From assembly GCA_963826935.1 (NCBI GenBank), contig CAWGYH010000002.1, positions 1,288,028-1,352,027 on the forward strand: a DNA stretch of 64,000 nucleotides, given 5' to 3'. Position 1 is the stretch's first letter. The number at the start of each line of letters is the position of its first letter. Positions 27,564-29,191 of this stretch are shown here, one piece after another. The translations under genes were made by a program, and so were the position numbers. This stretch comes from an uncultured Chlamydiales bacterium. Lineage in GTDB: Bacteria > Chlamydiota > Chlamydiia > Chlamydiales > FEN-1388. Below the pieces are notes generated by a model that worked only from the letters and a program-made list of their open reading frames with translations, was not told the DNA's origin and ran no database searches.

Positions 27564-29191
27564 GAGGCTGTGAAAAATGGATAAAAAGGAAGAAAATAGG
27601 GTAAGCCCAACTATTAAAATTTTGGGCATTTTTTTTCGAATGGTCACAAATCTTTTTTCGGCATCGATTTTTTGTCTATAACTTCATCGTTTTTTCCTTT
27701 TTTTTACAGTCTCGCATTGTTAATACCGTAAGGGATTTCTTAGAAACTTATTGGCAGTACTTAAAAAACATCATCATGTTATGAGTAATCGCATAGAGCA
27801 ATGCCGTCTGCTTTACCTTCTCGAGCCCGCGCACCCAAAATTCCCTCATTCCTAAATTCTTTGTTGACGCGTTTGCAAATTCTGCTGTACAACACCTTTT
27901 TTTATATTTGACCTGCGCTTCTTCTGTTCCCATTCTCTTTCTTAAATTCATCATTGCTTCATTATCAGTTTCGCGAGGGGTTAATGCATCATATTTACCG
28001 TTAGCAACAGGAGGACTGTAAAAAGTGATATGAGGAAATGCTTTTGCCGCTTCAGCAGCGTCTTTTTTATTTGCATATCCAGAATCACAAAGCCAGTCCT
28101 TAAGTATCTGACAGCCTATTTTTTCAAATGTTGCTGTCACTTGCTGCATCATAGGTGCTAAGGTTCCATAATCATTCGTATTGACTACTTCTACTGCCAC
28201 GATTACTTTTTTATCTGTAGTAGTTGCAAATTGAACATTATAAGCGGCTTGAGTCCCTCTATCTGGCATTTTCATTCTGCGTGCTTCAGGATCAGTAAGA
28301 GAAATTCTTAAATTTTCTTGATCCTTTTTTGTAAATGAGTTGTGGCTAGCTTTACCGGAAGCAATACGTTCTCTAACGTATTTCTTATATTCAGCCTGTG
28401 CCTTTTCTACACGTTCTTTTCTCTCTTGTGCAGCGCGCAATTTTGCCGCCTTCTCGCGAATACTAAATGCACCAGGATTTGTTTTTAACTCATTTTCAAG
28501 TCTAGTTATATGTGCGTTAGCTTCTTCCAAATATTCATCAAGTTTTGCTTTTCTCCTAAAAAGACCTTTTGATGCATTTGCCTTTACTTTTGTGCCATCT
28601 TGGGCAACAGTATCTGGTTGCCAAAGGCCTGATTGCCAAATTAGAGCAATTGATTCTTGTAGCAAGACCCGAAATTTATCTGCTCCACAAGTACGGAAAT
28701 CTGCTAGAGAATGGTAATTCATAGGAAGACCGCCACAGATCCAAATATATGCGTGATGTTCTCTGCATAAACGATCTATTTGTCGTGCAGAGTGAATGTT
28801 TTCTAATGTAGCATAAAGCCATAATGCCATCAGAACGCGAGGGTCTTTAGTTCGCGGACCTCCACACCCTTCAGGAAGTTTGATTTCATCGAGAAACTTA
28901 GAAAAGTCCATCTGACAAACAAATTCCCAAACATCCCTAGCCCGATGATCTTCAGGAATTAAGTCTTCCAGACAGGTAATTTGAAACTGAATCTGATTTC
29001 GAGAAGGCTTGTGCAAGCTCTTACGGATGTTATTTGAATCTGCATTTTTCTTTAATTTTTCTGCGAAAGGTAATTCTAGAGGAATAGGGCTCACAATAGC
29101 TCCTGGGGTGCATTATAATGCACTCCATTTTGCCATATTTTTGTGTTTTTAAGCAACTGATATTCAACGATTTATCATTTTTCACAGCCTC
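27564..29191 (-). mobile_element. Insertion sequence, IS5/IS1182-like (IS4/IS5 superfamily), apparently intact
   Basis: 1628 bp. Termini GAGGCTGTGAAAAATG (27564-27579) and its reverse complement (29176-29191) are identical over 16 nt and continue (G)ATAAA. Flanking direct repeat CTCACG (27559-27564 / 29191-29196) overlaps the terminal base; the minimal duplication is TCAC. Single transposase ORF. Confidence 0.85.
27748..29094 (-). CDS. DDE transposase (DUF772-type N-terminal domain + DDE_Tnp_1-type C-terminal domain)
   Basis: 448 aa. The N-terminal LIPEDHRARDVWEFVCQMDFSKF motif, a central coiled-coil, CDSGYANKKD and the C-terminal TAEFANASTKNLGMREFWVRGLEKV..ITHNM are typical of IS5/IS1182 transposases. 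Confidence 0.85.
   Translation of the reverse strand: MSPIPLELPFAEKLKKNADSNNIRKSLHKPSRNQIQFQITCLEDLIPEDHRARDVWEFVCQMDFSKFLDEIKLPEGCGGPRTKDPRVLMALWLYATLENIHSARQIDRLCREHHAYIWICGGLPMNYHSLADFRTCGADKFRVLLQESIALIWQSGLWQPDTVAQDGTKVKANASKGLFRRKAKLDEYLEEANAHITRLENELKTNPGAFSIREKAAKLRAAQERKERVEKAQAEYKKYVRERIASGKASHNSFTKKDQENLRISLTDPEARRMKMPDRGTQAAYNVQFATTTDKKVIVAVEVVNTNDYGTLAPMMQQVTATFEKIGCQILKDWLCDSGYANKKDAAEAAKAFPHITFYSPPVANGKYDALTPRETDNEAMMNLRKRMGTEEAQVKYKKRCCTAEFANASTKNLGMREFWVRGLEKVKQTALLYAITHNMMMFFKYCQ

Follow-up and report, generated by a model that had tools for sequence, protein, structure and literature searches.

Palindromic miniature elements share their ends with an intact IS1182-family insertion sequence in an uncultured Chlamydiales genome

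A stretch of 64,000 nucleotides from an uncultured Chlamydiales bacterium (C2:1288028-1352027, hereafter the window) carries an intact insertion sequence (IS) of the IS1182 family, called IS1 below, whose ends are shared by several families of palindromic, non-coding miniature inverted-repeat transposable elements (MITEs). Based on sequence comparisons throughout the 3.7-Mb assembly (14 contigs), it is proposed that the clade to which IS1 belongs mobilises these MITEs, a reading to which we give a probability of about 0.7. A sizeable share of this probability is assigned, with less certainty, to IS1 itself as the present driver.

The genome contains five copies of IS1, which are 100% identical across positions 1-1628 (BLASTN). 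The features of the copy in the window are the following:

27564..29191, minus strand: IS1, intact IS1182-family insertion sequence, 1628 bp; the similarity of flanks between copies stops exactly here
27564..27579, plus strand: left terminal inverted repeat (TIR), GAGGCTGTGAAAAATG
29176..29191, minus strand: right TIR, the identical 16 nt on the minus strand
27748..29094, minus strand: transposase gene, 448 aa, the single open reading frame (ORF) between the TIRs
27700..27713, minus strand: internal terminus-like motif GAGACTGTAAAAAA, inverted, with two mismatches; present in all five IS1 copies

Members of the IS1182 family consist of one transposase gene between TIRs and measure about 1.3-2 kb, the range given by ISfinder. 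IS1 has this layout, with 1628 bp, one ORF of 448 aa and, as the first-pass annotation of this DNA had read them, ends consisting of GAGGCTGTGAAAAATG and its reverse complement that match over 16 of 16 nt. The encoded protein matches the NCBIfam model of IS1182-family transposases, NF033551, with 300.3 bits (E 2.7e-89; curated cut-off 270 bits), and Pfam matches were obtained to DUF772, DDE_Tnp_1_6 and DDE_Tnp_1. All 46 columns that are invariant among 19 homologues (33-77% identity) are kept in IS1, including D166, D308, D337 and E405, and the catalytic triad would have to be sought among these acidic residues. Judged from these features, IS1 is an intact and active member of the IS1182 family with a DDE-type catalytic domain. 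The internal motif, located 150 bp from the left end and 34 bp past the stop codon, could represent an additional binding site, or match by chance within an A-rich stretch. An Rfam scan of the window matched no RNA family.

The link between IS1 and the palindromes lies in the terminus. The exact 14-mer GAGGCTGTGAAAAA, which corresponds to the first 14 nt of IS1, is present at 97 sites of the genome, where its reversed control has no match; eight same-genus genomes contain it 0-11 times each. When up to two mismatches are allowed, 10 sites are found in the window while 0.98 are expected, and this number was reached in 0 of 100 shuffles. Termini were assigned to families according to what comes after the 14-mer, with the following outcome:

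Family A: 130 termini, 107 of them with six A's (IS1 has five)
Family C: 43 termini, starting ...AAAAATGCCACGCCCGAAGGG; 31 with five A's as in IS1
Family E: 8 termini
Family D: 3 termini
IS1: 10 termini

Identity with the IS1 end extends over the first 14 nt in family A and over the full 16 nt in families C and E, and the extra A that had been noticed at the ends of the window's palindromes is the usual state of family A. The MITEs are multi-copy and 35-280 bp in size. Family A (~253 bp) is represented by 122 BLAST loci, 72 of which are near full length, and the hairpin of family C is occupied by A in some copies and free of it in others. At the lower end of the size range stand elements made of TIRs only:

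C2:1548244-1548278: TIR-only mini-element of 35 bp (two TIRs), set in a CTTAC-GAA-GTAGG palindrome whose GAA is cleanly duplicated (3 bp)
C5:730968-731018: TIR-only mini-element of 51 bp

As stated in the first-pass annotation, the interior of the MITEs is unrelated to that of IS1, which matched only its own five copies by BLASTN. The MITE boundaries, in turn, coincide with the terminal motif, and the proposal thereby passes one of the refuting tests named in the first-pass annotation: when the 72 family A copies are aligned together with 40 nt on either side, columns are conserved at 0.7-0.99 within GAGG...CCTC and at 0.2-0.5 beyond it, the fall occurring exactly at the motif. Median pairwise identity within family A is 82%, and A copies that are 100% identical to one another form several sets, with unrelated flanks and with a duplication of its own at each copy (AGA, TCT, CCT, CCT). 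Family A is therefore old yet recently mobile.

Target duplications were scored on 71 terminus pairs lying 30-600 bp apart, with coordinates shifted by 1-10 nt as controls. An exact 3-bp direct repeat was found directly outside the termini in 35 of the 71 pairs, against 0-2 in the shifted controls, which establishes that the MITEs have target duplications; no pair had a 4-bp duplication. The duplicated trinucleotides are the centres of palindromes (GTTCC-GAA-GGAAC, CCTAC-GTA-GTAGG, CTCCC-GAA-GGGAG, CTCCT-GAA-AGGAG) with stems of 5-8 bp and a common symmetric core, C-NNN-G. These target palindromes are often themselves parts of other repeats: GTTCC hairpins form both ends of the palindromic repeat called element B, the CACGCCC hairpin is located within family C ends, and some GTCCTAC hairpins form the apex of another long palindrome. 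Composites of C containing A (~502 bp) are common. IS1 uses only the centre of element B, family C mostly the ends of B, and family A the hairpins of C along with GTCCTAC/GTCCTCC hairpins. No MITE was found at the 4-nt B centre, save one IS-like stub at C3:218656.

The same data bear on the view that the palindromes are repeats of the REP (repetitive extragenic palindrome) or BIME (bacterial interspersed mosaic element) kind, spread by Y1 transposases of the REP-associated tyrosine transposase (RAYT) type, their IS1-like ends being a coincidence. Hallmarks of REP and BIME sequences are the lack of TIRs and of duplications, tagged hairpins of 20-40 bp and association with a Y1 transposase; HUH/Y1 transposition yields neither TIRs nor target duplications. 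The Y1 transposase domain (PF01797) does occur in the genome, with 14 matches, at least one of them flanked by GTAG-tagged hairpins. The MITEs, however, have TIRs identical to those of the IS as well as 3-bp duplications, coincidence is excluded by the 14-mer count (97 exact copies, none for the control), and the Y1 genes of this genome belong to other hairpins, all of which makes a Y1-driven origin extremely improbable. The Y1 match at C5:387069-387413 (region C5:386850-387800) is flanked by inverted GTCCTCC-NNN-GGAGGAC hairpins and then GTAGCCCATAGC; from its sequence, this gene with its hairpins looks like a REP-RAYT arrangement.

Four palindromes of family A or similar to it are located in the window:

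2567..2797, unstranded: family A copy 1, 231 bp; left end GAGGATGTGAAAAA with one mismatch, right end with two mismatches
35354..35609, unstranded: family A copy 2; right end with one mismatch, left end degenerate, GAGGCTGAAGGCCTCTG
46500..46755, unstranded: family A copy 3; right end exact, left end degenerate, GGTGTTTTGTGAAAAAAT
57029..57352, unstranded: diverged A-like palindrome (copy 4), a relic; no 14-mer match with up to two mismatches at either end

The claim of the first-pass annotation that all four share the ends of IS1 thus stands for both ends of copy 1 and for the right ends of copies 2 and 3, and has to be given up for the left ends of copies 2 and 3 and for copy 4. None of the four has a clean target duplication, the duplication evidence being that of the genome-wide copies. 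At the loci orthologous to copies 1-3 in five same-genus genomes, where only one flank is syntenic, no A copy was found. The right end of copy 2 forms with its flank a hairpin, CCCAGCCTC-TAAAATA-GAGGCTGGG (35596-35622), a near-duplicate of which is found at 35305-35333, ~20 bp left of the element.

IS1 itself has been found in a single kind of site. Element B is a ~206-bp palindromic repeat starting AGTTCCGAAGGAACG, present in the genome in ~24 copies, of which 19 have no insert. All five IS1 copies lie at one identical base of B, in the same orientation relative to it. In the window, this site is organised as follows:

27447..27563, unstranded: left part of element B, ending in the stem GTCGC (27555-27559) and the loop TCAC
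27560..27563, unstranded: left copy of the target duplication TCAC; all five IS1 copies are flanked TCAC...TCAC
29192..29195, unstranded: right copy of the target duplication TCAC
29196..29284, unstranded: right part of element B, starting with the stem GCGAC

Around IS1, the two arms form the inverted repeat I1 (27440-27536 / 29195-29291, 81% complementary). Since the empty B copies read CGCTCACGCGA without interruption (18 of 19), IS1 entered GTCGC-TCAC-GCGAC and doubled the 4-nt centre TCAC. Judged from these empty copies, the stems on both sides were retained and the loop was duplicated at 5 of 5 IS1 copies.

That base, orientation and TCAC are the same at all five copies could also mean that B and IS1 moved together as a composite unit, or that IS1 was passed from one B copy to another by gene conversion or homologous recombination. 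While IS1 is 100% identical, the B arms beside it vary among copies, as near as 6 and 11 nt from the IS1 end, and the sequence beyond element B is unrelated among the five loci; five separate insertions are therefore favoured. Long identical B tracts at every copy, or units of B and IS1 with duplications of their own, were not seen. Moreover, a second IS of this genome (IS2, below) and metagenomic relatives of IS1 also enter palindrome centres, at unrelated sites. Movement as a composite or by conversion is consequently given very little weight.

In the window, IS1 and its host repeat occupy the spacer between the divergent genes ftsY and sucC (27142-29433), which is 2292 bp long here and 8-40 bp in five same-genus genomes, whose orthologous site has neither element B nor IS1. 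Most of the excess length is made of element B (~206 bp) and IS1 (1628 bp), with ~450 bp besides. Element B draws at least two kinds of mobile element. Two B copies are interrupted at about position 110 by a group II intron that encodes a 457-aa reverse transcriptase/maturase (TIGR04416, 396 bits); this 1.9-kb insert had been a candidate for an autonomous element and was rejected once recognised as the intron:

C2:163132-165008: group II intron in element B
C5:773974-775850: group II intron in element B

Other possible partners were sought in the assembly with tblastn and three Pfam models. Two IS1182-type elements were found, IS1 and IS2, and IS1 is the only coding element with the ends in question. 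This supports the proposal, made in the first-pass annotation, that IS1 or a close relative is the autonomous partner of the palindromes. IS2, whose transposase is 33% identical to that of IS1, is present in four identical copies:

C2:1023997-1025631: IS2, second IS1182-family element
C2:1551127-1552761: IS2
C3:148757-150391: IS2
C5:551241-552875: IS2

The ends of IS2 read GAGCTTAGGAAAAAAA and its target is always GCTGC-GGTA-GCAGC (once GGCA), the 4-nt centre being duplicated. No MITE with IS2 ends was found in the genome, all eight exact IS2 termini belonging to its four copies, and the amplification of termini is therefore specific to IS1. IS2 is excluded as a partner of the MITEs by its unrelated ends, and a third, weak DDE element is excluded for the same reason. 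Larger units with family A ends were likewise considered as autonomous elements and rejected: pairs of 2.0-2.5 kb are mis-paired termini, and units of 1866 and 1868 bp consist of A with an IS481-like insert (397-aa transposase):

C4:105163-107028: composite of A and the IS481-like insert, 1.87 kb
C5:743208-745075: composite of A and the IS481-like insert, 1.87 kb

Relatives of IS1 in metagenomes extend the comparison beyond this genome. Metagenomic transposases 55-77% identical to that of IS1 keep the same TIR. At 72-77% identity, the ISs have the ends GAGG[C/T]TGTGAAAAATGA and are located in 3-nt palindrome centres with 3-bp duplications, as in GCGCCCC-ATC-GGGGCGC (one relative, on a 25-kb contig), GTCCC-TCC-GGGAC and GAGTCCT-GTA-AGGACGGCAT, the latter used at several distinct loci. 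Metagenomic homologues at 54-57% identity have the same ends, but no clean duplication in their flanks. One transposase homologue is annotated as coming from a Parachlamydiaceae genome, and a transposase search of reference-genome contigs gave no match. Duplication length thus varies within one clade, from 3 nt where the palindrome centre has 3 nt to 4 nt where, as in element B, it has 4.

One same-genus genome (G005), in which the transposase was not detected, contains E-type MITEs of 181-183 bp with the exact 16-nt end. Its 182-bp element is inserted in GAGTCCT-GTA-AGGACGGCAT with the duplication GTA, which is the site used by the metagenomic ISs. The first-pass annotation had made its proposal depend on MITE duplications comparable to those of the IS; metagenomic ISs and MITEs agree in ends, in duplication length and in one target, and this test is therefore answered. 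The genome studied here measures 3.7 Mb, against 2.2-2.9 Mb in its same-genus relatives.

Several observations weigh against mobilisation of the MITEs by the IS1 clade or, more specifically, by IS1: 1) the targets of IS1 and of the MITEs do not overlap, IS1 duplicating 4 bp in the B centre and the MITEs 3 bp elsewhere; 2) the family A ends have six A's and those of IS1 five; 3) the TIR is conserved across the clade down to 55% protein identity, and the shared ends therefore do not single out IS1; 4) family A, with its median identity of 82%, predates the IS1 burst; 5) same-genus genomes, mostly fragmented assemblies, in which no transposase was detected also contain A-like and E-like MITEs; 6) in the frequent target CACGCC-CGA-AGGGTGTG, the duplicated trinucleotide is one base off the symmetry centre; and 7) in 13 of the 71 MITE pairs (for instance C2:1114978-1115231 and C5:530822-531074), the 3-nt flanks are inverted and not direct, which simple insertion does not predict.

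There are hints that these inverted flanks may have arisen from recombination between copies located in like hairpins, or from homogenisation of the arms. The difference in arm complementarity (0.84 vs 0.79, one-sided p 0.016, with non-independent copies) is too weak to sustain arm homogenisation. Inverted flanks on short metagenome contigs were excluded as possible assembly chimeras. In some inverted-flank pairs, rare TIR variants are common to both ends.

Points of this kind could be accommodated if the MITEs had been spread by another member of the IS1 clade, using 3-nt loops with 3-bp duplications and now lost or unassembled, IS1 being a later arrival with a narrow target in the B centre and little role in MITE movement. 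The different duplication lengths and disjoint target sets agree with such a scenario, as do the relatives at 72-77% identity that give 3-bp duplications in 3-nt loops, the greater age and diversity of the MITEs compared with IS1, and their presence in same-genus genomes without a detected transposase. However, the 14-contig assembly holds no second coding element with these ends, the A copies that are 100% identical at different sites imply movement as recent as the IS1 burst, and of the genomes compared, only the one with IS1 has reached 97 exact termini. On balance, a vanished relative acting in place of IS1 is considered rather unlikely.

If the IS1 clade does mobilise the MITEs, the following mechanism can be envisaged. 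The DDE transposase of IS1 would recognise the ~14-16-bp end GAGGCTGTGAAAAA(TG), and families A, C, E and D, together with the 35- and 51-bp mini-elements, would be moved in trans by this transposase or by that of a very close relative; both the binding of these ends and the action in trans are putative. Insertion would take place into the unpaired centre of short palindromes of the C-NNN-G type, with duplication of the 3- or 4-nt centre. The MITEs, which form hairpins, would then become targets for each other and for IS1, leading to nested, multi-layer palindromes. The target would presumably be read as an extruded hairpin and not as a symmetric duplex. More tentatively, and at well under even odds, it can be suggested that the transposases of this IS1182 clade read structure in place of sequence, cutting at the stem-loop junctions of the extruded hairpin, so that the length of the duplication would equal that of the loop (3 or 4 nt). 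As a part of this suggestion, and just as speculatively, repeated apex-into-apex insertion of MITEs might have built the many multi-layer palindromes of this genome.

The last step may be viewed differently, without prejudice to the other readings: the palindromic target could reflect recognition of a two-fold symmetric duplex by a dimeric transpososome, involving neither hairpin nor cruciform, as at the hot spots of Tn10 or Tn5. The symmetric C-NNN-G core common to the targets is in keeping with this, stems of 5-8 bp would make weak hairpins by themselves, and in folds of whole elements the local target hairpins are absent and replaced by long-range pairing. A rigid complex would nonetheless give one fixed stagger, whereas the duplication length tracks the palindrome spacer (3 in 3-nt and 4 in 4-nt) in two IS lineages as well as within one clade. 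The stem sequences also vary widely among targets, and stem-loops are the reported target of IS1272, another IS1182-family member (PMC4923244, PMC5678879). Duplex recognition is accordingly a possible, though doubtful, account of the target.

Mobilisation by the IS1 clade would provide one explanation for the many long, nested palindromes of this 3.7-Mb genome, and it would tie a MITE superfamily to the IS1182 family, a pairing that was not found in the literature examined in detail. With its 3-nt and 4-nt loops and its 35-bp TIR-only elements, the system offers a set of natural targets on which the choice of hairpins by a DDE transposase could be studied. In annotation, these palindromes should be treated as mobile DNA; to read them as terminators or regulatory RNAs that arose where they now stand would be mistaken.

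Among known systems, IS1272/TnSha1 of staphylococci, of the IS1182 family, targets hairpins, with blunt cuts and a target repeat that is reported to be deleted or replaced, without duplication (PMC4923244, PMC5678879). IS1 has the same transposase family and hairpin-type targets. Unlike IS1272, the IS1 system keeps both stems and duplicates the 3-4-nt centre, and so departs from the inverted-repeat-replacing mode; these two papers describe no MITE superfamily for IS1272. Another parallel is offered by the REP-targeting ISs (IS1397, ISKpn1, ISPsy8, ISPa11, ISPpu9/10 and ISRm22), all or nearly all copies of which occupy one set position within a dispersed palindromic repeat; the families surveyed were IS3, IS110, IS4, IS256 and IS5, and IS1182 is not among these five (PMC1525189). 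Similarly, 5 of 5 IS1 copies occupy one place in element B, although the host repeat is a 206-bp MITE-like palindrome and not a REP of 20-40 bp.

The partnership of an IS with MITEs is, as such, a known kind of system, RUP with IS630-Spn1 and the Correia elements being among the classical bacterial examples. Like these, the elements described here are short, non-coding, intergenic and numerous, end in TIRs of an IS resident in the genome, and are bordered by target duplications. In contrast to them, one TIR bounds at least four unrelated palindromic interiors as well as TIR-only mini-elements, and insertion into palindrome centres, with 3-bp non-TA duplications, leads to nested palindromes. 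What distinguishes the present system is thus the loop-sized duplication, the use of one TIR for several unrelated palindromic interiors, and nested insertion.

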